This document shows, piece after piece, positions 4,500 through 59,484 of a stretch of DNA of 64,000 nt. Source of the DNA: Octopus sinensis (lineage: Eukaryota); NCBI RefSeq assembly GCF_006345805.1, contig NC_043001.1:68572001-68636000 (forward strand), given 5' to 3'. A model generated the notes under the pieces. The model was not told where the DNA came from. It worked only from the letters and a program-made list of their open reading frames with translations, and searched no databases. The position numbers and the translations under genes were made by a program. The stretch's first letter is position 1, and every line of letters starts with the position of its first letter.

Positions 4500-4599
4500 A
4501 CTTATAAATAAGGGCAAAATAAAAAAAAAATTTCGTATGCCAAATATGCCAAAATTAGACACATAGTCCATAACCATATAATTTATGGTTTTGAACGAG

Positions 4600-7035
4600 T
4601 TTTTTGAACAGTCATTAGATGTTTGAAGATATTTTGCCACTCAGTTGTGATGGTTTTGTGGGAGATTTCAAATTGAATCAGGTCTCTACCTCTTTGAGCT
4701 CTGGGTAGGTAAAAACTATCTGCGTCTCCCTTTGGGTGGTGCATCTTATTGCAAGTCAGCAGCTTTCGGATTTTCCTGTCAATCTTCCTTATTTCGCTTA
4801 TATTCCAGTTCAACACAATGAAACTGTAAATAACAACCGGAACTGCTAAGAAGTGTATAGCTAACACCTTGTTACGTGCATTTAACTCGGATTTTAGGAA
4901 GTCTCGAACTCTCCTGTAATACTCCTTCCTGATCTCTTTCATACTTGCATGCTGAATGCCAGAGACCCCATTTATTCTGAGGTATTTGTAAGTTTGTTCC
5001 TGCTCGAGTTCTGTTATGACTGTGTCAGCATCCAACTCCACTGAAGGTGAGGTCTTCAGTTTCCATTTCTGGAAAGTGGCCTTGGAACATTTATCAAGCT
5101 CAAATTCCATCTCAATATCATGACAATGCTTTCACAGTACGTAGTATTCCTTCAAGCTTATTATTGTCTTGGCCATAATATTTTAAGTCATCCATATGAA
5201 ATAGATGACTTATTTTCTTGTCACCAATTTTATATCCATAGCCTGTTCTGTCAAGTTCACTTGTAAGGGGTGACAGTGCTATGCGGAAAATTAAAGGTGA
5301 AAGTGAGTCACCTTGGAAAATGCCGCTATTGATATTAATATTGTTGAGTGGTCAGTACACAGTTAGAGTGGTATAGTTGGAGATTCGCATTCCACATTGA
5401 CATGCTGTGCTTCAAGAACTTTTAAATCACAGGAGAAATTTTGAAGATATCCAGCGATTTCAAAATCCATGAATGTAGTATGGTGTCGAAGGCATTTTTA
5501 TAATCAATCCATGCAGAACAGATCTCTTCGTTTGTTATGACATTTCTCAGGGATCATACGATTGATTAAGAGTTGGTCTTTGCATCCATTTGAGCCTCGT
5601 CGGCACCCCTTTTGTTCAGTGGGGAACATATCATTTTGTTCTATAAATTCTCATGTTTTCTCCACGAGCATGGACGTTAAAATTTTATACGTGGTAGATA
5701 GAAATGTTATGGTCCGATAGTTTTGGGGAGATTTGGTTTCATTATTCTTTGGGGGTAGATAAGTAATACCACTTGCTAACTAATCAGGTGTTTTCGTAGG
5801 ATCTCTCATAATTTCATTGAATAACTGAACAACCTTTTCGTGTGCGCAGAGGAGTGAGGCGAGCCAGAAATTTGGCACACAATCAATGCCAGATTTCCAC
5901 TTATAAGCTTTCGTGAGTGTCATTCTTAGGTCTGCTATTGTGATCTCTTCCCATGCTTGATCTGGTAAATTTTGGTAGGATCCTTCTGTGCGCCTAATCC
6001 AGTCTGCATTTTTATTGTAAGTCTTTTCATCACTCTACATATTTTTCCAGAATATTTCTTGCATGACAGAGGGATCTTCAACGGTTATTTTCTCCTTCTC
6101 TATTTCTCTGTGGAATGTTTTCGCATTGGATGTGAACAGCTTATTTTACTTCTAAATTTGTTCCTTTTCTCAAATTTTCGTATTCTTTGAGTTTTACTTG
6201 GATTTTTTGTTGCAGTGTTTCTTTTGCTGAAAGCAGTTCTTCACTTGATGAGAATCTATGTTTTCTCTTCATCTTTCTTCCTTTTCTGGTTTTTACATCG
6301 TTTCCACAGATTAGTTCATTCAATATTGATATTCCACCACTCTTTATTTCAATCTCTTTTCCAATGTTACTTTTCCAGTTCGGAATTCTTCTCAGGTTTG
6401 TATTTCTCTGTTTTTTCAGAGGAATACAACTGGTTTCAATTGTCTTAGCAGCTGCGTAAATAATTTCATTTAATTCAGTGAGATCTGGTTTTAGCTCTTG
6501 TAAATTTCCTTTGTTAAATAGTTTTCAATTTTAAATTGTTTTCTATTTTGGATTATATATGAGAGCTTATGAAGTGGTTCTCTATCATGCATATTGGCGT
6601 GTCTTACAGTTATTCAGGATTTTCTACTTTAGTTCTGTCTTAGACTCTCTATGTTCTTTTGTAAATGTGTAGTCCTCCAATATTGTTTCTTTACCACTTT
6701 CTTTATCAGGTTCATTACAATTTATTACTCCAGACGTTTGCGTGTTTTGGCCATGCGGCAGTCTTTCAATTGAGACTCGTAGAGAGTTGGTCTCTGTCTG
6801 GTTCTTCATTTCCTTTCTGTCTTACATTTAGGTCATTTTCCGTTGCGTGTTTGATCGGAGTTAGGTCCCTATATGTGAGTCTTTTATTCCTGAATATATC
6901 CCTCCTAACCTTTGCTAACATATTTTCGGTAGTTGTTCTGTAACTAATGCCGACTCCACCATTAATACCGTTACAGATATTTAAACCTTGTTTTACAGTA
7001 TTGCACATCGTTAGTTACCACCAATAGTCATATTG
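4600..7035 (-). mobile_element. R4/Dong-like RLE non-LTR retrotransposon remnant, family A (5' part through RT), disrupted
   Basis: RT motifs NYRTITFL, GIFQGDSLSP, MDDLK, MEFELDKC, YKYL, MHHPK; frameshifts and stops; 5' end abuts (TTA)n. Confidence 0.85.
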
Positions 7036-11403: not shown

Positions 11404-14400
11404 GCCTTTGCACAGCTTCTAACGATGGAAATGTACTACAGCATCAGCTGTTGACTATCATTGAACTAAGGTAACATATCTTATTTTTCGAGAACCTTCC
11501 GGAGTATTCGAGCGGGTTCAAGTAGTGCCGTTTTCTGCAAGTGCTTCATCCTTATTGCAGCCCCTATTTCTTCCATGTTCTTCTCGAGATTTTTACTCAC
11601 TGTTTACAGGTCTCCTACAATTATTGGTACCACTACCACATTTTTCGTCGACCACAGCTGCTTTACCTCCCAAGCTAACCTGTCATACCTATCGACTTAT
11701 ATTTCTTCCTTATCGCGTAACTAGTTGTCAGCTGGGCATGCTATATGTATAATCCAGCATAGTTAGTTTCCTTTCTCAATTAAGACTATGTCTGGCTTCC
11801 TATTCTCTATCTCATGGTCGCACTGAATTATAAAATCCCACAGGATCTTTGCATTATCATTTTCGATGATGCCTTCGGGTTTGTGGTCGTACTAATTTTT
11901 CTCTTTGTCAAGTCGATACTTGTTGCAATGTGTCCAAGTGACAAGCCTTGCTATATTGTCGTGACGTCTCTTATATCCCTTCTGGGCTCATGGCGTACAT
12001 TGGCTGGTAATATGCCACACAGTTTCACAATTTGTACACAGATTCTGCACTTATCACTTTCATGATGTGTTGTCCGCTCTGTATTTTATGTAGTGTGTTG
12101 TCAGTGCTTGCTCTTGGGCAGCACAGATTAGAGACTATTTCTGGCTTTAAATCATTTTTAGTCACCCACTGCCATCTTTTTTCTCTGACTGTCTTATCTT
12201 CAACATTCCCATGAAATTGTCGTCACATTCTTTTGTTTACCCATCTATATTCAGCTTCATTTGTTTTCAATTTCTTGTATAGTGCTTTATCTTTGGACTC
12301 TTTCATCCTACACAAGCCTGACCTTCTTAATTCTAATAATAGCGCTTCTGTGGCATGTTTTACATAACATACTATGTTGTTTTATTCTGCTCTAATGCTG
12401 TGTTCGCATCGAGTAAGTCCTCTACCCCCTTTTGCTTGGTACATATAGTCTGTCTGTGTCACTTTTTGGGTGGAGTGTCTCATATCTAGTTAGAAACTTT
12501 CTTGTCTTTCAAAGCTGTTTAGTTCGTCTACTGTCCAGGCGTTTACCTCTGCTCCATATCTAAGGAATGAAACCGCCCAAGTGTTGATAGCTTCGATCGT
12601 ATTACGTCCGTTTAATTTCGACTTAAGGATCAGTCTCAGTCTGTGCAAGTACTCAACTTTAGATTTTTCTGTCATTTCTTTCTCCATCAATTTATCCATT
12701 TCCAAAATCCCCAAGTACTTATAGCCCTTCTCTTCTATCTGCTTCATAACCTCCCCCGACGGTATCGATAGCCCGTCCATACATTTCATTTTGCCTCTCT
12801 TTAAGAGGTCATATTTTCTTAGTCCGAACTCCATTCTGATATCAGCACTGAAGTTATACTCCGTATCAACGAAGTAACTGACTTAGGCTTCATCTTTACC
12901 ATAAAGTTTGAGACCATCCATGAATAACAAATGGATGACTTTTTGTTGGCGGCTTTTGAACACATACCCAGCTTTTGCTTTTCTCAGTATCAGTGTTAGC
13001 GGTATCAAGCACAGTACAAAGATCAATGGGGGCAGGCAGTCCCCTTGGAAGATGCTCGTCCTGATGTCTGCTGTCCCTAAAAGTCTTCTGTCTGCTGTCA
13101 TGTCAGTCCTCCAATCGCCATATTTTTCCAAGCAATCGCTCAACATTCGATGCAATACCAAACAGGTTCATCCATTCCATTATCCAAGAGTTTGGGATCA
13201 TATCGTTCGCCTTACGATAGTCGATCCATGACATAGCTAAGTTACTTTTCCTCTTCTATCAGGAGGTTTTGTCTATTAGGAGTTGATCCTTGTTACCTCT
13301 GTACTTATGTTTGCAACCCTTCTGCTCATGTGGCAGGACTACCTTTTTTCCCAGACGTCCGTACATGACTCTGGGAGTATTTAAGTCAATGATTTCCACA
13401 TAAGTAGCAAACAGGATATCGGCCTGCAATTGTCTACCGTATTGCTTTTTTCGATGTTCTTCAGGCACATCACTGTCCTACCCGATGTTAACCACTCTGG
13501 TGTTACTTGGTCGGCGTTTAACTAGGTGTTGAGTTGCGCAGCTATTTGTGCATGACATTCACCAAATCTTTTGATCCAGTAGCCTTGAACGCTCTCCGGT
13601 CACTGAACCTTCCAGTGGCTCATCTTTTTGCTGATTTCCTTCACTTCCCTAACTGAAATGACTAGTTCTGCCTGTTTTGTACAGACTGTTTTTTGTTTCC
13701 GTTTTTGCGCTCCTTCTTTGCTCAATATTTCACTCCAACATCTTTGACTTTCATTGTTATCTGGTATCATCTTTTCATCTGTCCACTCTCCATTTATTTC
13801 TTTATAGAATCTCTTCTGATCTACTCTGAATAAGCTTTTCTGGTGGTAACCCTTCATTTTTTGGTCTTAGCTTATCATCTTTGCTTTCTTTACAACGAGG
13901 AACTGTTTCAGTTCCTCCTTTACCACTTTTAGGCCTACATTTCTGTTCGATTTTAAGCCCTCCTTCTCTTTTTGGTCTAACACAGAAATTTCCTTCGAGG
14001 GCATATCTGACCCTGCCTGGATTCTTCTTTTCCACCATACGTCTTTCCTTGTCACTCCCATTATAATTCTTTTTCTTGACGTCAACATCCACATTTTGTG
14101 CTACAACAATACTTACTGCCTAGATCAAATTATTTGTTTCTGCGATGTTTGTTCGGGTATATTTCAGAACATCATTGACATTTTTCGTTTCTTGGTTCAA
14201 CACCCACCGGTCAACCTTTTTAAGGTTGCAAATATTATTGCAATCGTTCTCCTGTTGTAAATTGCCTTTTGTTCACCTGTCATGTTGCCATTAATTTTAT
14301 TGTCTTCTTTTAGATCATCTATATATCTCTCATCAAGTAAACTACCACTTCTCCTTTGCTGTGCTATGAGATTACTTCATCGTTATCTCTGCTGCTATTG

Positions 14401-29671: not shown

Positions 29672-29673
<2 letters not shown>

Positions 29674-31097
29674 AGAAAGTTGGTTTGTGAAAGCACGTGG
29701 GTGAATATATAGAAAAAAGTAAAGAGTGAAAAAACTACAGAAGGCTTAAATGTTAAAAAAGATATATATTTGCGTCAATATGTCTGAAGAATATTAGAAA
29801 ATTTAAAAAAAAATTTTTTTCTCTTATAATGACATAATTTAAAAGAAAGACCGGTTTCGCGTTTAGCTTTTCAAATTTCTTGTGACGTTATGTTTATGTT
29901 GAATAGAGTTATGTTTATGTTGAATAGAGTTATCGTTATGTTTATGATCAGAAGAGTTCTAAATAAGGGAAGGTAGTGAGGGATTTCTTCCGGTGTAAGG
30001 GAGATAATCGCTTAAAAATTTTTTCCTTTCCCTTGGTATGAATTACTCTGTATCACTATGTTCGGATGGTTGAGTCTGGGCTTGTACTTTTCAATGAAGA
30101 ATGTTTCCTTGTTTAGTCTAATTTGTGTTGATGATCCGAAGGCACATTGGTAAAATGGATAGATTAAAAATTGTGGTAGTAGTTGCTTTGCGCATTTCTC
30201 AATGTGCTCACTAAAAGGTATCATTCTATATTCTGGGAATGCAATCTGTTGTCGATGCAGTGTGCATCTACGTCTGAGTGATAGTCCCGTGGAACCCACG
30301 TAGTCTTGGTGGCAGCCCGAGCATTTTATGACATAAATTATGTTTTCAGAGGCACAAGTAAATTTAGATTTGATCTTGAATTTCTGTCCCTCTTTAAAGA
30401 GGAATTCTGATCCTTCTAGCAGGTTAGGACATGTTGCACAGTTCGATCTACCACATTTTTTTACTTTTGCATCCGTAATTTCAGAAGACAATTTTGCCTT
30501 TGTGAGAATCTTTTTAAGTGATTTAGGCTGTTTGTAGCTTTTAATGATTTGGTGTATGTTTAGAATTTTCTTTAATTTGGGGTCTTTATGAAGTATTGGT
30601 AAATTCTGGGTGATGATGGTGAAAGCTTCTTTGTTTCTGGGGTTGTATGTAGATATGTAAGGTAGTATTTTCGGGGAAGGTGTGTTGTTGTGTTGAGCTT
30701 TTCTTAAAGTTTCTATGTTGATTTCTGTTGCACGTCTGATCCCATCCTCTATGAGTTGAGCTCGGTAATGTCTGTCAATTAGGGTGTTTTTGAGTTCTTG
30801 CAGTCTAAAGTTCCTGGTATTTTGTTCTGACACTATTGTGCATATCCTTCTTGCAAGGTTGAAGGGGATGTTTGTTTTAGTGTGTCTTGGGTGGCATGAA
30901 TTAAGAAGAAGGTATTGTTTGGCGTCTGTGGCTTTGTAAAAATGTCTGTTTCTATTTTAAGGTTAATTTTTTTAATTAGTATATCCAAGAACGGGAGCTC
31001 CTTTTGGTTGTATTCCATTGTGAACTGTATATTTGGGTTTATGCTATTCAATATGTTTTTAAAGTTTAGGAGTTTGTGTTTTCATTCCAGAGAATAA
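29672..31097 (-). mobile_element. 5'-truncated Penelope-like element: RT thumb, GIY-YIG endonuclease and pseudo-LTR
   Basis: IQFTME..ELPFLDILI, CGRSNCATC, NIIYVIKCSGCHQDYVGSTG, KYKPRLN; frameshift near 30920; TA flanks. Confidence 0.9.
29843..29881 (-). ncRNA. Minimal type I hammerhead motif in the PLE pseudo-LTR, U3-A8 variant
   Basis: aagaaa t TTGAAAA gc-taaac-gc GAAA ccgg TC tttctt; one extra U before the core. Confidence 0.65.
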
Positions 31098-31124
31098 AAC
31101 ATATATATATATATATTATATATA

Positions 31125-31174
<50 letters not shown>

Positions 31175-31380
31175 ATATATCTATATATATCTATATAATC
31201 TATATATATATATATCTATATAAAACATATATATCTATATATATATATGTATATATATATATAATCTATATATATATATCTATATAAAACATATATATCT
31301 ATATATATATCTATATAAAACATATATATCTATATATATATCTATATATATATATATCTATATATATATATATATATATA

Positions 31381-31415
<35 letters not shown>

Positions 31416-31571
31416 ATATATATATATATATATCTATATATATATATATATTATATATCTATATATATATATATATATCTATATCTATATATATATATAT
31501 ATATATATATCATATATATATATATATTATCTATATATATATATATATCTCTCTCTCTATATATATATATA

Positions 31572-31606
<35 letters not shown>

Positions 31607-31611
31607 ATATA

Positions 31612-31648
<37 letters not shown>

Positions 31649-31703
31649 ATATATATATATATATATATATCTATATATATATATATATATCTATATATAT
31701 ATA

Positions 31704-31736
<33 letters not shown>

Positions 31737-31773
31737 CTATATATATATATATATCTATATATATATATATATA

Positions 31774-31846
<73 letters not shown>

Positions 31847-31851
31847 ATATA

Positions 31852-31900
<49 letters not shown>

Positions 31901-31932
31901 ATATATATATTTATATATCTATATCTATATAT
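31098..31932. repeat. Long imperfect (TA)n tract
   Basis: Direct reading. Confidence 0.95.
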
Positions 31933-32151
31933 CAAAATTACTAAGTCTCTCTAAAAAAGAACAACGGCAGCGTTTCCGGAAAATAATAGTTATCGCCATA
32001 CTAATATGGCATTCTTATAAAAATAAGAATAAAGCTGTCCGCTCATTAGCTCCATGAGGCCATCGCCTTAAGTTAGCTATTTGATACACAAACTGTATCC
32101 ATATAACCTTCGAACAAGGGAGGTCAGTCGCTCCACACTACTTGACCGGCA

Positions 32152-32193
32152 GCTACAGACGCGTTTCGGGGTATTGCCCCTTTTCAATGCAGC
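32152..32193 (-). ncRNA. Minimal type I hammerhead ribozyme (U3-A8), inverted copy
   Basis: Exact reverse complement of 32397-32438. Confidence 0.8.
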
Positions 32194-32396
32194 GTAGCCA
32201 GACCATTTATAAGAATGCCATATTAGTATGGCGATAACTATTATTTTCCGGAAACGCTGCCGTTGTTCTCTTTTAGAGAGACTTAGTAATTTTAATATTT
32301 CTATTATTGAAAACAAGTGGATGTATGCCACCGAAGCTAGGTAAATAAAACCTTCGAACAGAGTTTGTCAGAAGCGACACCTACTGGTCTGGCTAC

Positions 32397-32438
32397 GCTG
32401 CATTGAAAAGGGGCAATACCCCGAAACGCGTCTGTAGC
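32397..32438 (+). ncRNA. Minimal type I hammerhead ribozyme (U3-A8, GUC site, cut after 32432)
   Basis: gctgca TTGAAAA gggg-caata-cccc GAAA cgcg TC tgtagc; 6-bp stem I, 4-bp stem II, palindromic ACGCGT. Confidence 0.82.
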
Positions 32439-32759
32439 TGCCGGTCAAATAGTGTGGAGCGACTGATCTCCCTTGTTCGAAGGTTATATGGATACAGTTT
32501 GTGTATCAAATAGCTAACTTAAGGCGATGGCCTCATGGGGCTAATAAGCGGACAGCTTTATTCTTATTTTTATAAGAATGCCATATTAGTATGGCGATAA
32601 CTATTATTTTCCGGAAACGCTGCCGTTGTTCTCTTTTAGAGAGACTTAGTAATTTTAATATTTCTATTATTGAAAACAAGTGGATGTATGCCACCGAAGC
32701 TAGGTAAATAAAACCTTCGAACAGAGTTTGTCAGAAGCGACACCTACTGGTCTGGCTAC

Positions 32760-32801
32760 GCTGCATTGAAAAGGGGCAATACCCCGAAACGCGTCTGTAG
32801 C
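32760..32801 (+). ncRNA. Minimal type I hammerhead ribozyme (U3-A8, cut after 32795)
   Basis: Identical to 32397-32438, 363 nt downstream. Confidence 0.82.
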
Positions 32802-33029
32802 TGCCGGTCAAGTAGTGTGGAGCGACTGACTCCCTTGTTCGAAGGTTATATGGATACAGTTTGTGTATCAAATAGCTAACTTAAGGCGATGGCCTCATGG
32901 GGCTAATAAGCGGACAGCTTTATTCTTATTTTTATAAGAATGCCATATTAGTATGGCGATAACTATTATATCTATATATATATATATATATATATATAGA
33001 TATATATTTATATATTTATACCAATTTAA

Positions 33030-33058
33030 TCTCGAGCAACGTCGGGTATCATTGCTGG
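33030..33058 (+). mobile_element. Helitron-like 3' end
   Basis: ctcgagcaacgtcggg hairpin then CTGG|T; resembles 34050-34073. Confidence 0.5.
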
Positions 33059-33305
33059 TAATATAATATAATATGATAATTAATAAATGTTAAATACAAA
33101 TAACATACAATTGTTGCGTTTCTTACACATAATAAAATTATAAAAATCCATGTTTGTGGGTAAGAATTTCTTCAGTGTAATGTTTGATATATGAAAATTT
33201 ACAGATCCAAGAAAAGACTAATTTAAATGTTTATGTTTTCAAGCTACAGCGTAAATAATTAAAAATAATAACAAAGATAAAAATAAAATAAAATAGGAAA
33301 AATAA

Positions 33306-34073
33306 TCTATATATATAAAACTCAACTTGTGTGTCTGTGTGTGTATCTGTGTGTGTGTCTGTGTGTGTGTCTGTGTGTTTAACTTCCCGGCACATCTCCT
33401 CCTAGCCAACAAATCGTAGAACCAACAAAAATAGGTCACTTAAAGTTTAGGCGAATGAAAATTGAACTGCGCTATTTCTGTTCCCAAATTCATCTCGCAA
33501 GTGCAAAAATCGATAATGTGTTTGTTTAGGCCTTATCCCATGCATTGAATAGTGAACTTTACTCAGTCAGCTGTTTGACGTGAACTGTGTTCACCACGCG
33601 TGCATGCATGCGTAAATTGCATGAAAAATAAAAAATCAAGATATAAAAACGAATCGCCGTAAACATTGTAGAAATTCGGCCTAGAATTGAATTTTCGGGA
33701 TGTGAATTTTCGTATTAATCGTTTGGACTTTGTGAACACATACCAATTATCTATATATATAAAGCTGAAGTTGTTTGTGTATGGCAGGTTTGGTAGCCGT
33801 CAACCAACACTAAATCCTCCGAGACCCTGCGGCGCAAGCTGACCAAAATTGAGAGTATGATAGAAGAAGGCTTGCTCTTCCTTCTGTAGAAGACAAAATT
33901 CAAATCGGACCATCAAAAAGGTGCTTTTTTTCTATGAATTTTTTGACTGTCACCATTTTTCGTGTATTTCAACCAGAAAAATGTTCACTTAAAGAGAATA
34001 ACAAGCTACATAATGCAAAATTTTTACTTTTCAAAAATTCCAATTCTGAAGCAACGCCGGGTGATACTGCTAG
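33306..34073 (+). mobile_element. Non-autonomous Helitron(s): two 5' ends (33306, 33750) and one 3' end
   Basis: A|TCTATATATATAAA starts; ends gcaacgccgggtgatactgCTAG|T. Confidence 0.7.
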
Positions 34074-39378: not shown

Positions 39379-39845
39379 TCAAATTATCTTTGTGAACAGC
39401 TTGTACACGTGAGGCAGCAGGCATATGGGTCGATAATTCTTTAGATCATCTCTATCGCCATTCTTATATAGCAGGATGATATTTGACTCGGTGAAGATTT
39501 TCCAGAGCTGCTCTCTGCCTGACTTTAACATCTCCGATGTTATACCGTTTATCCCTGGCGCCTTTCTGTTTTTCATCAAACCGATGGCTCTTTCAAACTC
39601 AATGACAAGGATATGTGGCACATTTTCTTCCAGTTGGAGTGGTGGTAACGGCTGGACATTTCTGGTAGACTTGAAGAGCTTGATGTAGAAGTCTTCGCAA
39701 ACTTTTTCCATCTCGCTCTTATCGTTGACCGGTACTCCATCTGTATTCTTCAGGGTTGTCACCTCTGATCTATATAGTACCATGTCCCGCTTGCATTTCT
39801 TGAAGCTCTTCTTTTCCTCTGCGTCCTTCAAGAGCTTCTGCAGTA
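39379..39845 (-). mobile_element. RTE-clade LINE, inverted 5' segment (N-terminal RT)
   Basis: KAPGINGITSEMLK, IILLYKNGDRDDLKNYRPICLL. Confidence 0.85.
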
Positions 39846-39847
39846 GT

Positions 39848-40550
39848 TCTCAAGATGAACCGCATGAAAACGAAGTTCATGCGGTCAGACAACGTACCAA
39901 CATGTTGAATGGTGATCGGCAGTGATGAAATAGAGGAGGTAAAGGAATATGTCTACCTGGGGCAGGAAGTGAATAAGTGCTGAGATATCGAAAAGTAGAT
40001 CTCACGGAAAGTAAGGGAGGGATGGAAGGCGTTTAATGGTATAAGGGATGTGCTCAGGGAATGTGGGACAGGACCACCCGCGCCAACCTCATCAATAGCA
40101 CAGTTCTACTTGCAATGTTATATGGTAGTGAAACATGGGTTACAACAAAGAAAGAAGAACAGAAATTGGTAACGGCTCAAAGAGCCATGGAGATGTCAAT
40201 GCTTGAACTCTCGTTGAGAGAGCGTATTGGTAGCGAAGTCATCAGACGGAAGTCCGGCGTGAGGGATGTCATCGTAGAATATACATGCAACGAGTTTAGA
40301 TGGGCTGGACACGTTCCCCGGCACACCGATAATCGGTGGACCCGCGCAGCTAATGAGTGGTACCCGCGTGACCGGAAACGACCACTCGGAAAGCCTCTAC
40401 GACGGTGGAGTTACGATTTCAGGAGGACAATTGGGATCACATAGATGAGAAAGGTGCGATCCAGGGAGGAGTGGACAGCGTGCTGTGACCAGCGGTATCA
40501 ACTGGACGCCCGACGGACTGGTCGGTCAAGGTGATGAAGGTGCAGGTGAT
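39848..40550 (+). mobile_element. RTE-clade LINE 3' segment
   Basis: IEEVKEYVYLG, LYGSETW, WAGHVPR..DNRWTR, KRPLGKP.RRW; short aggtga-repeat tail. Confidence 0.85.
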
Positions 40551-45939: not shown

Positions 45940-48080
45940 GAACACTACGAAACTCAACACCTTGTTAAATGCCGACCAAGTAACCCCAGAGTGGGTAACA
46001 TTGAGTAGGACATTGCTGTGCCTGAAAAACATAAAAAAGGCAATACGGTAGACAATTACAGGCCCGATATCCTGTTTGCCACAATTGTGGAAGTTATTAA
46101 CTGGAATACTCGCAGAGTCATGTACGAACATCTGGAAAAAATGGAGTCCTGCCACATGAGCAGAAGGGTTGCAAGCGTAAATGCAGACAAAACTATACTT
46201 AGAGACTGCAAGAGGAGTAAAAGTAACTTAGCTATCTCATGAATCGACTATCGTAAGGCGAACGATATGATCTCATATTCTTGGATTATGGAGTGTATGA
46301 GCCTATTTTGAATTGCATCGAATGTTGAGCGATTGCTTGGAAAAAGTATGGCAAATTGGAAGGTGGAACTGACAGCATACAGAAGACGTTTAGGGGCAGT
46401 TGAAATTAGGAGAGGCATCTTCCAAGGGGACTGCCTGTCCCCACTGATCTTTGTACTGCGCTTGATATCACTAACACTGATTCTGAGAAAAGCAAAAGCT
46501 GGGTATGTATTCAAAATCCGTCAACAAAAAATCAACCATATGTTATTCATGGATGACCTCAAACTTTATGGTAAAGATGAAGCCCAAGTCAGGTCCCTCC
46601 TTGGTACGGTGTATACCTTCAGTGCTGATATCAGAATGGAGTTCGGACTGAGAAAGTGTGGTGTGTTAGTCTTGAAGAGAGGCAAATTCAAATGTATGGA
46701 CGGGTTAACGATACCGTCGGGGGAGGTTGTGAAGCAGATAGAAGAGAAGGGCTATAAGTACTTGGGATTTTGGAAATGGATAAATTGATGGAAAAAGAAA
46801 TGACAGAAAAGTTTAAGGTGGAGTACTTGCCCAAACTGAGACTGATTCTTAAGTCGAAATTAAACGGACGGAATAAGATCGAAGCTGTCAACACCTGGGC
46901 AGTTTTACTCCTTATATATGGAGCAGGAGTAATCGCATGGGCTGTAGACGAACTAAACAGCTTAGACAGAAAGACAAGGAAGTTGCTAACTAGATATGGA
47001 ACACTCCACCCAAAAGGTGACACAGACAGGCTGCATGTACCAAGCAAATGGGTGGGGGAGAAGACTTATTGGATGCGAACACAGCATTAGAGCAGAAGAA
47101 AGCAACATAGCATGTTATGTAAAAAAATGCCACAGAAGCGCTATTATTATAAGTACGAAGGCCAGGCTGGTGTAGGATGAAAGATTGCAAAGATAAAGCA
47201 CTATACAAGAAATTGAAAACAAATGAAAATGAAAATAGGTGGGTAAAGAAATGAATGGAAGGTCAATTTCATAGGGATGTTGAAGATTAGACAGACAGAG
47301 AAAAAAGATAGCTGTGGATGACTAAAAGTGATTCAAAACCGGAAACGGATGTTCTAATCTGTGTTGCTCAAGAGCAAGCACTAAGAACAAACTACATAAA
47401 ATACCGAATAGACAACGCAGCAGAAAGTGATAAGTGCAGAATCTGTGGACAAAACGGCGAAACCGTATGGCATATTACCAGTCAATGTACACCACTAGTC
47501 CAAAAGGAGTATAAGAGACCCCACGACAATATAGCCAGGCTTGTGCATTGGACACTTTGCAACAAGTATGGTTTTAACAGAGTAAAAAATTGGTACGGCC
47601 ACAAACCTGAATGCATAATCGAAAATGATAATGCAAAGATCCTATGGGATTTTATGATTCAGTGCGACTATGAGATAGAGAATAGGAAGCCAGACATAGT
47701 CTTACGTGACAAAGAAAACAAACTGTGCTGGCTCATATTTTAGTATGCCCTGTTGACAACAAGGTATGCGATAAGGAAGAAAGAAAAGTCGAGAAATATG
47801 ACAGGTTAGCTTGAGAAGTTTAGCAGTTGTAGTCGATGAAAAAGGTAGTACTAATACCAATACTTGTCGGAGCCCTGGGAACAGTGAGAAAAAATCTCGA
47901 GAAGTACGTGGAACAAATAGGGGCCGCAATAAGGGTGGAGCACATGTAGAAAACACGACTGCTTGGAACCGCTCGAATAGTCTGGAAAGTGCTCGAAATA
48001 TAAGAAATGTTACCATAGATCAATGGTAGTGAACAGCTGACACCATAGTACATCTCCAGCATTAGAATCTGTGCAAAGAA
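45940..48080 (+). mobile_element. R4/Dong-like RLE retrotransposon, family C, 5'-truncated
   Basis: GIFQGDCLSP, FMDDLKLY, CRICGQNGETVWHITSQC, RPHDNI, KPDIV; (TAA)n tail. Confidence 0.9.
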
Positions 48081-48129
<49 letters not shown>

Positions 48130-48135
48130 TCATCA

Positions 48136-51100
48136 TAAGTTGGTTTTAAAATTTGAGACTACATAGAGAGTGTTTTACGTAGGGTATGGGGAGTTCCCAT
48201 GAGCATTATCTCTTGAATATCTGTCATTTTGGAGATTTCCTGGTATATGAGCCACGTAGCAATCAGCCCCTTTTGCTATCATTCCTAGAGTACCTGTGAC
48301 AACAGGTATTGTTTTAGTTTTGAGGTTCCACATTATGCCAATTTCTATTTCAAGATCTTTATATTTGCTCAGATTTCTGTAGGTCTTGACAGATACATTT
48401 ATGTCGATTGGAAGAATCATATCAATGAGGAGTTATGATTTTTGTCTGAAATCTCTCAATATAATGTCTTGCCTTTTGGCATCTATCTTTCTGCCAGTTT
48501 GAATGGTGAAGTTCCAGAGGAATGAGATGTGATCATTTTCAAGACTGGAGGTGGTTTGTGTTCCAACCAGATTTTATCTGTGGCAGGTTCAGTTTTTTGC
48601 AAATTACCCGGTGAATATATTGTGCTGTTGAGATACTGTGCAGGCGCATGAAGACTGCACATGGAGACAACATGATCAATGGTTTCATTTTGTTGTTTGC
48701 ATACACGACATGTTGGGCTACTGTCGTTCTTTAATATGTTGACCTGGTAGTTCCTCATATGTTGGCATTGATCTCCGGCTGCTATGATAAACCCTTCTGT
48801 TTCTGATTTTAATCCAGATGACACTAACCATTGTTGGGTAAAGGATTTGTCAACATCGGCATTATTCGCTGCTTGAGTATTTGGCATTCAGAGGTTTTAC
48901 TTGCCATTTATCAATAAGAATATCTATGGCAGCAGTTTTAGCACGGCTTTTCATACGCTTAGCATTTTCTGTGCTTGTTTCCAGTATGTCTAATTCTGGG
49001 ATTTGTTGCATTTGTAATTCACTTGCATCTTCTCTTACCAGTTTTAATACTGAGTATGATGCTTTCTTGTTTTCATGTTTTAAGATAAGTTTTAACATCC
49101 ATTCATCATAGTTTTTCAGGTAAGTGTTGAGATCAACTGTGTCAATCTTCATTGTTATTGCCATTTGTAAAAGTCTACGGCCACCCTATTTTCTTGGCAG
49201 GTAAAGTCGTTCTATATCTATCTTAGGGTGGCGCATTCTATGCATTGTCAACAACTTTCGTATTTTTCTGTCGAGATTACATATTCCAATCGTTGATCAG
49301 TTAATCCTATTGAAACTGTAAGTCACGACTGGTATGGCTAAAGTATTGATTGTTTCGATCCTGTTTCTTGCATTCTGCTATATCTTGTGGTGTATTACCC
49401 TTACCCTGCGATAACATTCTCTTCCGATCCTTTCTCTCATCATTGAATGTTTGTTTCCATCACCTTTCCGCTGTTCTTAACTCTTTTATGACATGCTGCT
49501 TGTCGAGAGTAATGTTGGATGTTTCTGTCATTTTTCATTTTGCACATTTATCGAGGCCAAATTGCCTCCTGATGTCATCACTGAATTGTTTACCAATTGC
49601 TAGCAAGCCTTGTAGTTGTTGTCGTTTTTTGCAAAGAGCTTTAAATCATCTTGTAATGATGATTTATATTTTTATCAAACATTTTATAGCCATAATGTAC
49701 ATCATTGAGCAATTTCGAGAGAGGAATTAAGGCTAGACAAAAGAGGGATGGTGATAGAGAGTCACTTTAGAAAATGCCACATGAAATACTTACATCTCCA
49801 GCATTGAGATTCATTGTCACTGTTCAAAGTCAGTGTAGTTCTGCATGATCTCATACTTACAGACAAGCAGTTTCGCAGAGTCATTTTATACATTTCCAGA
49901 CCTATCTTAATCCAATTGTATGGAGATTTTATAGCCTATCCAGGCTATCGACAACTTTTTATGTCGTTTGTGACAATCTTCCAAGTTCATCGTATTGATG
50001 AATTGCTGATCTTTACAATTATAGGCCCCACGTCTATATCCTTTATGCTCATTATGGAATATGCCACCTTTCATTTAAAAACTATAGACTATAGATACAT
50101 TCAGTCAAGACAGATGTCATTATTTTATACATTGTTGTTAAGCAGGTTATCGGTCTATAACGTTTTTGTTCATTCGTTTCTTCATTTGTTGGAAGTAGGA
50201 ATGTTACACTATTCACAGGTCAAGAGGGAATCATATTAGGTGGTTGCAAAACATCGTTGTAAACTTTTGTTAACAGTCCATGACTCAACCAGAGTATAGG
50301 AATTTTATCCTTTCCTGGAGACTTCCATTTGCTTGACCTCCCGAGAGGAGATCTTACATCCTCTATCTTGATACCATCCCAATTTTGCTCTTCTAAGGAG
50401 TCTAAGTCAGTAGTTATTCTATCCGTCCAAGGAGCCTTTATATTATGTTTTTTCTTCTGGCCAAATTTTATTCCATAATTCCTGCATATCTTCTTTTGAT
50501 GGGACACACTCTACTGTAACTAATATTTTCCCTATCATCCTGTAAAAAAATTTTGGGTTATTTTTGAACATGTTGCCCTTGAAGAATCTAACACGCTTTT
50601 CATACCTTCCTATGCGGGCAGCTTTAGCACATACCTTTTGCTTGGTAGTTTAGTTTCTATGGTGGTATCGATGTCAAGTATGGTTTTTCTTTAACTTCCA
50701 GATTTTTGTTAGTTTGATACTCTTGTCAAACTTAGGTTTTTTTAAATTCTATGTCAGACCTAAGTAGCTGAATTTGTTCTTCAATATGCTCTGGCCAAGT
50801 AGGCTTTTTGTGGGAATGTTGTCGTTTTCTAATCTTTTCATCACATACAGTCGTTGAGATTTTCGCGAATGCATAGTACAGATGGTTGAGATCTGAAATG
50901 CCAACGTCATTAGCTGAAATGATATACTTAAGTGCAAGGCAGATTTTACCAATTACTTTCAGATTTTGGTTAGAGTTGCGAATTTTCGGGAAAGTGACAC
51001 GTTCATTCATACTGGTTACTTTGATTTTCAGCCATTCAATCATGATTTGATTTTTTTTAGATCATCTCATTCACTTGGGTCAATTTCTATGTGACTTACT

Positions 51101-58228: not shown

Positions 58229-58397
58229 TGTATGTATGTATGTATGTATATATATATATATATAAGAAAATAGTAAAGAGTGAAAAAACGACAGAAGGCT
58301 TAAATGTTAAAGAATATATATAGTTGCGTCAATATGTCTGGAGAATATTGGAAAAATTTTTTTCCCTTCTTATAATGACATAATTTTATAATTTTTA

Positions 58398-58436
58398 AAG
58401 AAAGACCGGTTTCGCATTTAGCTCTTCAAATTTCTT
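58398..58436 (-). ncRNA. Minimal hammerhead motif (U3.G8) in the inverted pseudo-LTR
   Basis: aagaaa t TTGAAGA gc-taaat-gc GAAA ccgg TC tttctt. Confidence 0.65.
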
Positions 58437-59276
58437 GCGACGTAATGTTTCTCTTTAATATCGTTATCCTTGTTTTTTTGCTTTCAACACAACAACACAC
58501 CTTCCCCAAAAATACTACCTTACATATCTACATACAACCCCAGAAACAAAGAAGCTTTCACCATCATCACCCAGAATTTACCAATACTTCATAAAAACCC
58601 CAAATTAAGGAAATTTCTAAACATACACCAAATCATTAAAAGCTACAAACAGCCTAATCACTTAAAAAGATTCTCACAAAGGCAAAATTGTCTTCTGAAA
58701 TTACGGATGCCAAAAGTAAAAAGATGTGGTAGATCGAACTGTGCAACATGTCCTAACCTACAAGAAGGATCAGAATCTTCTTTAAAGAGGGACAGAAATT
58801 CAAGATCAAATCTAACTTTACTTGTGCCTCGAAAACAAATTTATGTCATAAAATGCTCGGGCTGCCACCAAGATTACGTGGGTTCCACGGGACTATCACT
58901 CAGACGTAGATGCACACTGCATCGACAACAGATTGCATTCCCAGAATATAGAATGATACCTTTTAGTGAGCACATAGAGAATGCGCAAAGCAACTACAAC
59001 CACAATTTTTAATCTTTCCATTTTACCAATGTGCTTTCGGATCATCAACACAAATTAGACTAAACAAGGAAACATTCTTCATTGAAAAGTACAACCCAGA
59101 CTCAACTATCCAAACATAATAATACAGAAAATTCACACTAAGAGAAAAAGGGAAAAAAAAAATTTTAAGCGATTATCTCCCTTACACCGGAAGAAATCAC
59201 GCACTACCTTCCCTTATTTAGAACTCTCCGTAGCAAAAAACAAGGATAACGCTATTAAAGATAAACATTACCTCGC

Positions 59277-59314
59277 AAGAAATTGAAGAGCTAAATGCGA
59301 AACCGGTCTTTCTT
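59277..59314 (+). ncRNA. Minimal hammerhead motif (U3.G8, GUC site)
   Basis: aagaaa TTGAAGA gc-taaat-gc GAAA ccgg TC tttctt. Confidence 0.72.
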
Positions 59315-59384
59315 TAAAAATTATAAAATTATGTCATTATAAGACGCCAAAAATTTTTTCCAATATTCTCCAGACATATGGACG

Positions 59385-59484
59385 NNNNNNNNNNNNNNNN
59401 NNNNNNNNNNNNNNNNNNNNNNNNNNNNNNNNNNNNNNNNNNNNNNNNNNNNNNNNNNNNNNNNNNNNNNNNNNNNNNNNNNNN
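59385..59484. other. Assembly gap (100 N)
   Basis: Run of N. Confidence 1.

Follow-up and report, generated by a model that had tools for sequence, protein, structure and literature searches.

Within 64,000 nucleotides of the Octopus sinensis genome (assembly GCF_006345805.1, contig NC_043001.1, positions 68,572,001 to 68,636,000; this whole stretch is "the window" below) lies a tandem repeat whose 363-bp unit has no sizeable open reading frame (ORF) and carries a predicted type I hammerhead ribozyme. Our overall reading, which we regard as probable, is that the RNA of this unit is circularised and copied into (TA)n tracts by a Penelope-like element (PLE), and that the unit is itself the target of a long interspersed nuclear element (LINE) of the L1 group. 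Judged by those features that a sequence can test, the element is a metazoan non-LTR (long terminal repeat) retrozyme, and apparently a new one. Because both the retrozyme class and the U3-A8 form of the hammerhead core are already published, the element alone would be a new member of a class.

Architecture of the locus

The locus comprises a direct arm of 764 nt (32206-32969), which amounts to 2.1 units (363 bp, 362 bp and 39 nt), and an inverted arm of 277 nt (31929-32205) that is 98% complementary to it. Self-identity within the direct arm extends over 261 nt at a spacing of 363 and over 140 nt at a spacing of 362, and the two direct units are one substitution (32449) and one 1-nt indel (32467) apart. 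An exact 30-nt hammerhead core occurs three times in the window, at 32403-32432 (+), 32766-32795 (+) and 32187-32158 (-); the cuts predicted in the direct arm, after 32432 and 32795, are separated by 363 nt. Across all six frames, the longest ATG-led frame of the unit encodes 38 amino acids. A first-pass annotation of this DNA had described an ORF-less unit in about 2.1 direct copies with an inverted partial arm, TA flanks, three identical U3-A8 hammerheads and these same two cuts, and each of these was found again when the sequence was re-analysed; the inverted piece that it reported is real and 31934-32205 lies within it, but its length is 277 nt rather than 272 bp. Positions in the unit are given below as q, the window position minus 32205. 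The features are as follows.

31929..32205, minus strand: inverted 5′-truncated arm, holding unit positions 180-363 plus 1-93; its long (tail) 3′ end meets the left TA tract
32206..32568, plus strand: direct unit 1, 363 bp
32569..32930, plus strand: direct unit 2, 362 bp
32931..32969, plus strand: closing 39 nt of the direct arm, which form its short 3′ end (q39), a terminus common to about half of the arms genome-wide
32245..32307, plus strand: 63-nt tail (q40-102), found at just one of the two ends that an inverted insertion has; it terminates in sequence like that which closes repeat family B
32391..32442, plus strand: hammerhead 1, with outer stem, UAC/U loop, helix I, U3-A8 core (32403-32409), helix II, GAAA and palindromic ACGCGU stem III; predicted cut after 32432
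32754..32805, plus strand: hammerhead 2, identical to hammerhead 1; predicted cut after 32795
32148..32199, minus strand: hammerhead 3, inside the inverted arm, core 32187-32158
32370..32386, plus strand: LINE target site in unit 1 (q165-181), empty; at other loci duplicated on either side of the LINE
32733..32749, plus strand: second LINE target site, in unit 2, empty; placed by position in the unit
31101..31932, no strand: (TA)n tract, left flank, likely the target
32967..33020, no strand: (TA)n tract, right flank
29673..31100, minus strand: neighbouring 5′-truncated coding PLE, likely a separate insertion, with an ORF at 30012-30956, a CxxxxCxxC linker, a GIY-YIG-like end and a minimal U3-A8 hammerhead at about 29843-29880

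The predicted hammerhead ribozyme

With a hand-made descriptor, the motif parses as a canonical type I hammerhead, consisting of an outer stem, a UAC/U internal loop, a 6-bp helix I, the U3-A8 core, a 4-bp helix II with a 5-nt loop and a palindromic stem III, and it is present in all three window units. The first-pass annotation had pointed to the minimal form of the ribozyme that PLEs carry; the 6-bp helix I, the UAC/U loop and the outer stem show that this is not the form found here. The same descriptor fits four repeat families (A, the unit studied here, and B to D) despite their different helix sequences, with the UAC/U loop 1 in all of them. Helices I and II are paired across the families, two of the five parsed sequences each having one mismatch in a helix, and stem III is palindromic in four of the five. 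Family C also matches the Rfam model Hammerhead_HH9 (E 1.4e-5), under the gathering score. The cores themselves vary among the other families (L193-L202, L210-L213, L215 and L216), being C3-G8 and mostly U4C in B and U3-G8 in C and D.

An unconstrained fold of two strands gives a double hammerhead at -40.7 kcal/mol, about 6 kcal/mol below the -34.6 kcal/mol of a pair of monomers. None of 100 shuffled versions of the cut-to-cut monomer folds as well as the monomer itself (z = -5.0). The RNA of the unit is predicted to self-cleave as a dimer. The U3-A8 core is a natural variant with activity in vitro (Perreault 2011, PMC3088659) and has been reported in Cercyon-related PLE motifs of Schistosoma (Cervera and de la Pena 2014, PMC4209133).

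Some results limit the case for an active ribozyme. Searching positions 31000-34000 against Rfam at E ≤ 10 returned no hammerhead, only repeat-driven microRNA and small nucleolar RNA matches, and the assignment is therefore built on the motif and on the comparison across families. Conservation of the core, assessed in 26 host units picked by their LINE and not by the core, goes in the expected direction (minor letters are 1 of 337 in the core versus 197 of 7,866) but lacks significance when computed by columns (Fisher p = 1). Finally, just one of nine predicted retrozyme dimers from Xenopus cleaved in vitro (Li et al. 2026 preprint, 10.64898/2026.07.22.740005).

Family size and insertion footprint

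The genome searched comprises 2.72 Gb in 13,516 contigs. It contains 1,148 copies of the exact core (585 + 563) and a reversed control contains none, so the core is not a product of chance; when helix II is left free, 1,543 matches are found, with 14 in the control. On contig C1, the 77 exact cores among the matches listed group into 35 loci, which makes several hundred loci genome-wide a fair estimate. Dispersed loci are 92-99% identical.

The way these copies end is characteristic. We mapped 73 LINE-free loci (the 21 best matches, 32 loci on C1 and 20 more on C1 or C2), all chosen for a good match or an intact core. Their 3′ ends cluster at two fixed points about 63 nt apart, q29-43 in 61 of the 130 arms and q93-108 in another 64, and a short end is paired with a long one in 49 of the 52 inverted two-arm loci. 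A TA tract lies directly at 110 of 124 fixed 3′ ends. Truncation at the 5′ side is random, the 5′ ends of the arms being scattered. All eight loci that were hand-picked for readable flanks have target duplications, about 10-14 bp long. Published PLE insertions show partial tandems, an inverted 5′-truncated copy, a one-sided tail of 30-40 bp and a bias toward (TA)n (Craig et al. 2021, PMC8557442), and the insertion architecture of the unit, as read from these loci, matches that structure. The PLE-type integration footprint that had been proposed from the window locus is thus borne out across the sample.

None of the 73 LINE-free loci is joined to a PLE ORF. In the five loci that were positive by tblastn, the PLE ORF lies across the TA tract or hundreds of bases away, and an ORF combining reverse transcriptase (RT) and GIY-YIG domains between the repeats, the mark of an autonomous PLE, is absent. 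The element is not an autonomous PLE, in agreement with the non-autonomous status first assigned to it.

Template and copying mechanism

The distribution of arm ends also bears on the template. Both fixed 3′ ends fall inside the cut-to-cut monomer, at 175 and 238 nt past the cut. One predicted cut is crossed in 99 of 125 arms, two in 30 and three or more in 10, so that copying does run past the cut site as had been suggested, and arms ending within 4 nt of a predicted cut number 4 versus 3.1 expected. A cleaved linear monomer was considered as the template and rejected, in that the pile-up of 5′ ends it predicts at the cut is absent. Since most arms cross the cut and there is no pile-up there, the template was a circle or an uncut multimer. 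Variants are mostly shared between the arms of a locus (every copy of both arms carries the variant in 91 subfamily and 7 rare cases, as against 2 cases fixed in one arm only, counting arms of two or more copies), which indicates that the arms come from one molecule or from very close relatives.

Between a circle and a multimer, the circle is favoured, because mussel, coral and axolotl express related repeats of like size and build in circular form (PMC7229834); by this analogy we infer a circular RNA template for the unit. The unit would be transcribed and its RNA cleaved after GUC, and the cleaved RNA would be ligated to a 363-nt circle. The borrowed RT/GIY-YIG protein of a PLE would then prime at a fixed internal point (q39/q102), copying would run round the circle until the enzyme drops off, and the product would enter a (TA)n tract. 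Some long arrays appear to have grown afterwards by duplication at the DNA level.

It is worth considering how individual arrays fit this model. Units of two types alternate with a period of 2 in array L065 (2355-4836), and those of one type have a mismatch in helix II; such a pattern fits either a dimeric circle or a two-unit DNA duplication. A partial period-4 pattern in L089 (2421-5987) was examined as the trace of a tetramer circle and set aside; its first units do not fit and DNA duplication is simpler. Less comfortable for copying from a circle are variants limited to several units of one arm in L078 and L089, which point to later DNA-level duplication of some long arrays, and 334G in the window locus itself, a variant that the two direct units have and the inverted arm lacks and that fits DNA-level duplication too. 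Contigs that run across the empty LINE site and the join between units come from three sequencing runs guessed to be RNA and from one large run; they give neither ends nor strand and may derive from DNA, and we use them neither way.

An alternative that we consider unlikely makes the unit a non-autonomous PLE whose templates are linear read-through transcripts, left uncut, from tandem source loci; its hammerhead would be slow or vestigial, no circle would be needed, and unequal crossing-over would have made the long arrays. Consistent with this, both fixed 3′ ends lie away from the cut, only 10 of 125 arms cross three cuts, the long arrays examined (L078, L089) are DNA-duplicated, eight of the nine Xenopus dimers did not cleave, and the U3-G8 core of families C and D and the C-C-G-A-U-G-A of most B copies may be weak. 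Against this, four families retain the full canonical architecture, including loop 1, despite different helices, and the mussel, coral and axolotl counterparts are circles. The alternation in L065 is likewise what a dimeric circle would give, with the proviso that a two-unit DNA duplication would give it too. A circular template remains our preferred explanation.

A site-specific LINE in the unit

Three of the 35 loci on C1 have a coding flank joined at q166, and this flank is an autonomous LINE of the L1 group. It is 5,349 bp long, with an ORF1 that bears a CCHC knuckle and an ORF2 that encodes an endonuclease, an RT and a zinc-binding domain (Pfam zf-CCHC; Exo_endo_phos, RVT_1 and zf-RVT); both ORFs are open in L131 (3648-9010). 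The nearest solved structure is human L1 ORF2p (E 3e-66, versus 4e-23 for R2). A protein search with ORF2 gave 39 hits, none of them a named Tx1 protein and only two of them named at all, a Ciona pol-like protein and a Chlorella RT.

Pattern searches returned 39 LINE 3′ ends and 36 junctions, and reading of the loci gave 42 copies in 33 loci. The insertion point, about 32 nt before the hammerhead core, is nearly invariant: the 3′ end is at q165/166 in 41 of the 42 copies, without a poly(A) tail, and 37 of the 39 visible 5′ ends are full length and follow q181 (gaps hide the other three). A duplication of 16-17 bp (q165/166-181) surrounds the LINE. The two truncated 5′ ends are still joined to unit sequence, and LINE-duplication-LINE tandems occur at two loci. 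All three of the more divergent copies (92-97% protein identity) are off target, so the site preference of the LINE is strong and not absolute. Some 400 nt away from one of the main LINE's off-target copies is a U2 gene (L192:630-801; Rfam), which is not the one at which a sister LINE ends (below). No LINE is visible in a unit in the window, where both target sites are empty. Five of the 130 mapped arms (L067, L089, L185, L186 and L006) start at q164-167, within the LINE target, and have no LINE; about 1.4 would be expected, and this weak excess is unexplained.

Divergence is 0.96% among the LINE copies and 3.5% among their host units (from 33 of the 37 aligned copies, the four without host flanks being left out), and LINE haplotypes cross host subfamilies. 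At one 29-kb locus (L139-L141, G000:C3:72500871-72529900), four tandem and one inverted unit-plus-LINE composites occupy all five units; the ends are of the PLE type, and a duplication of roughly 15 bp is apparent. Three of the five LINEs there are not each other's nearest relatives. That this array was rolled off a single 5.7-kb circle was entertained and rejected as the main explanation, as its LINEs differ at 5-14 sites that are variable elsewhere too. A 70-nt truncated LINE on C11 was likewise not accepted as proof of independent insertion; it is ambiguous and may be a template jump in the same locus. Because the LINEs are closer to each other than their hosts are, because their haplotypes cross subfamilies, and because those of the array vary at sites variable elsewhere, independent targeted insertion is favoured, and we infer from these comparisons that the copies were placed by the sequence-specific endonuclease of the LINE.

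A different history, to which we assign a similarly low probability as to the linear transcripts, is that one or a few chance insertions of the LINE into the retrozyme were multiplied as PLE cargo, with gene conversion mixing the LINE copies. The figures that tell against independent insertion belong here: LINE and host distances correlate (Spearman 0.42), 23 of 37 copies have their closest LINE within their own host subfamily (subfamily sizes would predict about 15), and shared ORF2 variants, with 8 synonymous to 29 non-synonymous, look roughly neutral. From these figures it follows that some joint copying of unit plus LINE is possible; that 37 of 39 copies are full length and that one locus holds five composites in a PLE-type arrangement would also suit the cargo history. 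Conversely, none of the copies breaks off within the LINE against an inverted arm or a foreign flank, though most PLE-made arms are under 1 kb. The crossing of host subfamilies by LINE haplotypes also argues against cargo, and the enzyme of the LINE itself is needed to explain the LINE tandems, the off-target copies and the sister insertion with which a U2 gene was hit at its start. Last, three LINE families share their positioning in different hosts.

Sister LINEs on other hammerhead repeats

The positioning of the LINE is not peculiar to family A. Among 17 sister-family 3′ ends that were read, those at 83-85% protein identity lie before other hammerheads, whereas seven at about 79% lie at other targets. 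Genome-wide, five of the seven distinct 3′ ends of sister B are 33 nt before the family B core. Sister C has 29 distinct 3′ ends genome-wide, of which 21 are 26 nt before the family C core and one is at that same distance before the family D core; the remainder are five in its own tandems, one with another duplication-like flank and one at the first base of a U2 small nuclear RNA (snRNA) gene, the first bases of which resemble the LINE target (L214:140-333). Families B and C, with 80 and 188 exact motif matches, respectively, are themselves head-to-tail non-coding units of about 365 bp that end in TA tracts, and the tail end of family B is shared with the 363-bp unit. The offset from the core (26-33 nt) is therefore kept across three LINE families while the 15-17-bp targets differ. 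Either a safe multicopy target that the three inherited from their common ancestor or some advantage conferred by the ribozyme could explain this. The approximately 79% sister (L203-L209) forms a dense cluster on C28 at 4.3-5.5 Mb; L207 lies about 130 nt from a hammerhead-like motif on the opposite strand.

Two observations bear on a possible use of the ribozyme by the LINE. Each LINE has AATAAA at its 3′ end. Replacement of upstream host alleles through a co-transcribed leader was not seen in the clearest discordant case, L167, which weakens the idea of ribozyme borrowing. Given these, use of the host ribozyme is no more likely than ordinary transcription and polyadenylation.

The neighbouring coding PLE

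The window also contains two 5′-truncated copies of a coding PLE that is young and abundant, at 29673-31100 (-) and 58265-59385, the second with an inverted 5′ piece. Its 3′ end bears a minimal U3-A8 hammerhead with a palindromic ACCGGU stem III, a motif that does not fit the type I descriptor used for the unit. Elsewhere in the genome the open frames of this PLE reach 811-850 amino acids (L097-L100), and frames of more than 800 amino acids imply that machinery for copying exists. As the donor of the unit, this neighbour was considered and set aside: comparison of this one PLE family with the unit gave no significant nucleotide similarity. A search with one PLE protein as the sole query identified no partner PLE. 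Both negatives detract from a PLE-based mechanism of copying.

That the loci are instead 5′-truncated ends (pseudo-LTRs) of an ordinary coding PLE, an outcome the first-pass annotation had named as fatal to its own proposal, is very improbable, for although the footprint is PLE-like and the coding PLEs of this genome carry U3-A8 hammerheads, the units run head to tail with no ORF between them, none of the 73 loci is joined to a PLE ORF, and no coding sequence other than the L1-group LINE inside the unit was found joined to it.

Elsewhere in the window, decayed LINE-like fragments of reading frames, judged by eye from their translations, lie at 4583-6524, 12490-12882, 39379-40444 and 46312-48887.

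Discussion

It is informative to set the unit beside known systems. Like metazoan non-LTR retrozymes (PMC7229834; 10.64898/2026.07.22.740005), it is an ORF-less tandem unit within the range of 150-450 bp (about 350-390 bp in mussel), with one type I hammerhead per unit, low GC content, a highly self-paired monomer, long target duplications and PLEs as the proposed mobilisers; as expected of a retrozyme, its many copies are also dispersed and flanked by target duplications of more than 4 bp. It departs from the described retrozymes in its U3-A8 core, its quantified PLE footprint and its site-specific LINE, and in being known here from sequence alone; moreover, within the one PLE family compared, no partner with a homologous terminal repeat was found. 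With the pseudo-LTR hammerheads of PLEs (PMC4209133) it shares a palindromic helix III, predicted activity as a dimer and U3-A8, and with the insertions of endonuclease-bearing (EN+) PLEs (PMC8557442) the partial tandem, the inverted truncated copy, the one-sided tail and the microsatellite bias. Unlike PLEs, it has no RT/GIY-YIG ORF, its hammerhead is canonical and not minimal, and its tail is about 63 nt as opposed to 30-40.

The LINE has its closest parallels in the target-specific members of the Tx1 clade, in which Tx1 inserts into Tx1D, Tx1-Mar into Mariner-N4, Keno into U2, and Kibi and Koshi into microsatellites (Kojima 2015, PMC4494074). Like these, it is an L1-group LINE with two ORFs and an APE (apurinic/apyrimidinic endonuclease)-type enzyme that uses one site in a multicopy sequence, a category that includes other transposons; it re-inserts in tandem, and one sister copy is in a U2 gene. 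Judging from these insertion features, it appears to work like a target-specific Tx1 LINE, a likeness of insertion behaviour. As far as that published account extends, the LINE differs from the Tx1 clade in that its target is a hammerhead retrozyme and in that three sister families keep the 26-33-nt offset though their targets differ. A figure legend of the same paper (PMC4494074) counts satellites, unnamed, among the Tx1 targets, and a precedent for the LINE may lie there. We found no paper on LINEs that target hammerhead repeats or retrozymes in a literature search whose coverage stops short of subscription papers and Repbase reports.

Taken further, these observations invite a chain of three tiers, which we offer tentatively and regard as doubtful as a whole. 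A PLE would copy retrozyme circles by reverse transcription of the rolling-circle kind; a lineage of L1-group LINEs would have specialised on hammerhead repeats, following each family and inserting 26-33 nt before the core; and the flanking host ribozymes would cut the LINE RNA out of retrozyme transcripts, leaving ends that match the target.

The means by which animal retrozymes move is treated as an unsettled matter in the reports consulted (PMC7229834; 10.64898/2026.07.22.740005). The octopus unit belongs to a young family and so gives a PLE footprint that can be counted, in which copying appears to start at a fixed internal point and to pass the cut site, and the circle-template model thereby becomes directly testable in one genome. 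The three sister LINE families, with their different 15-17-bp targets, provide a natural series for studying how the specificity of an APE endonuclease changes. They also raise the question of whether a LINE can use the ribozyme of its host to shape its own RNA; if this were true, the LINE would be borrowing the ribozyme of its host in the way that R2 uses its own.
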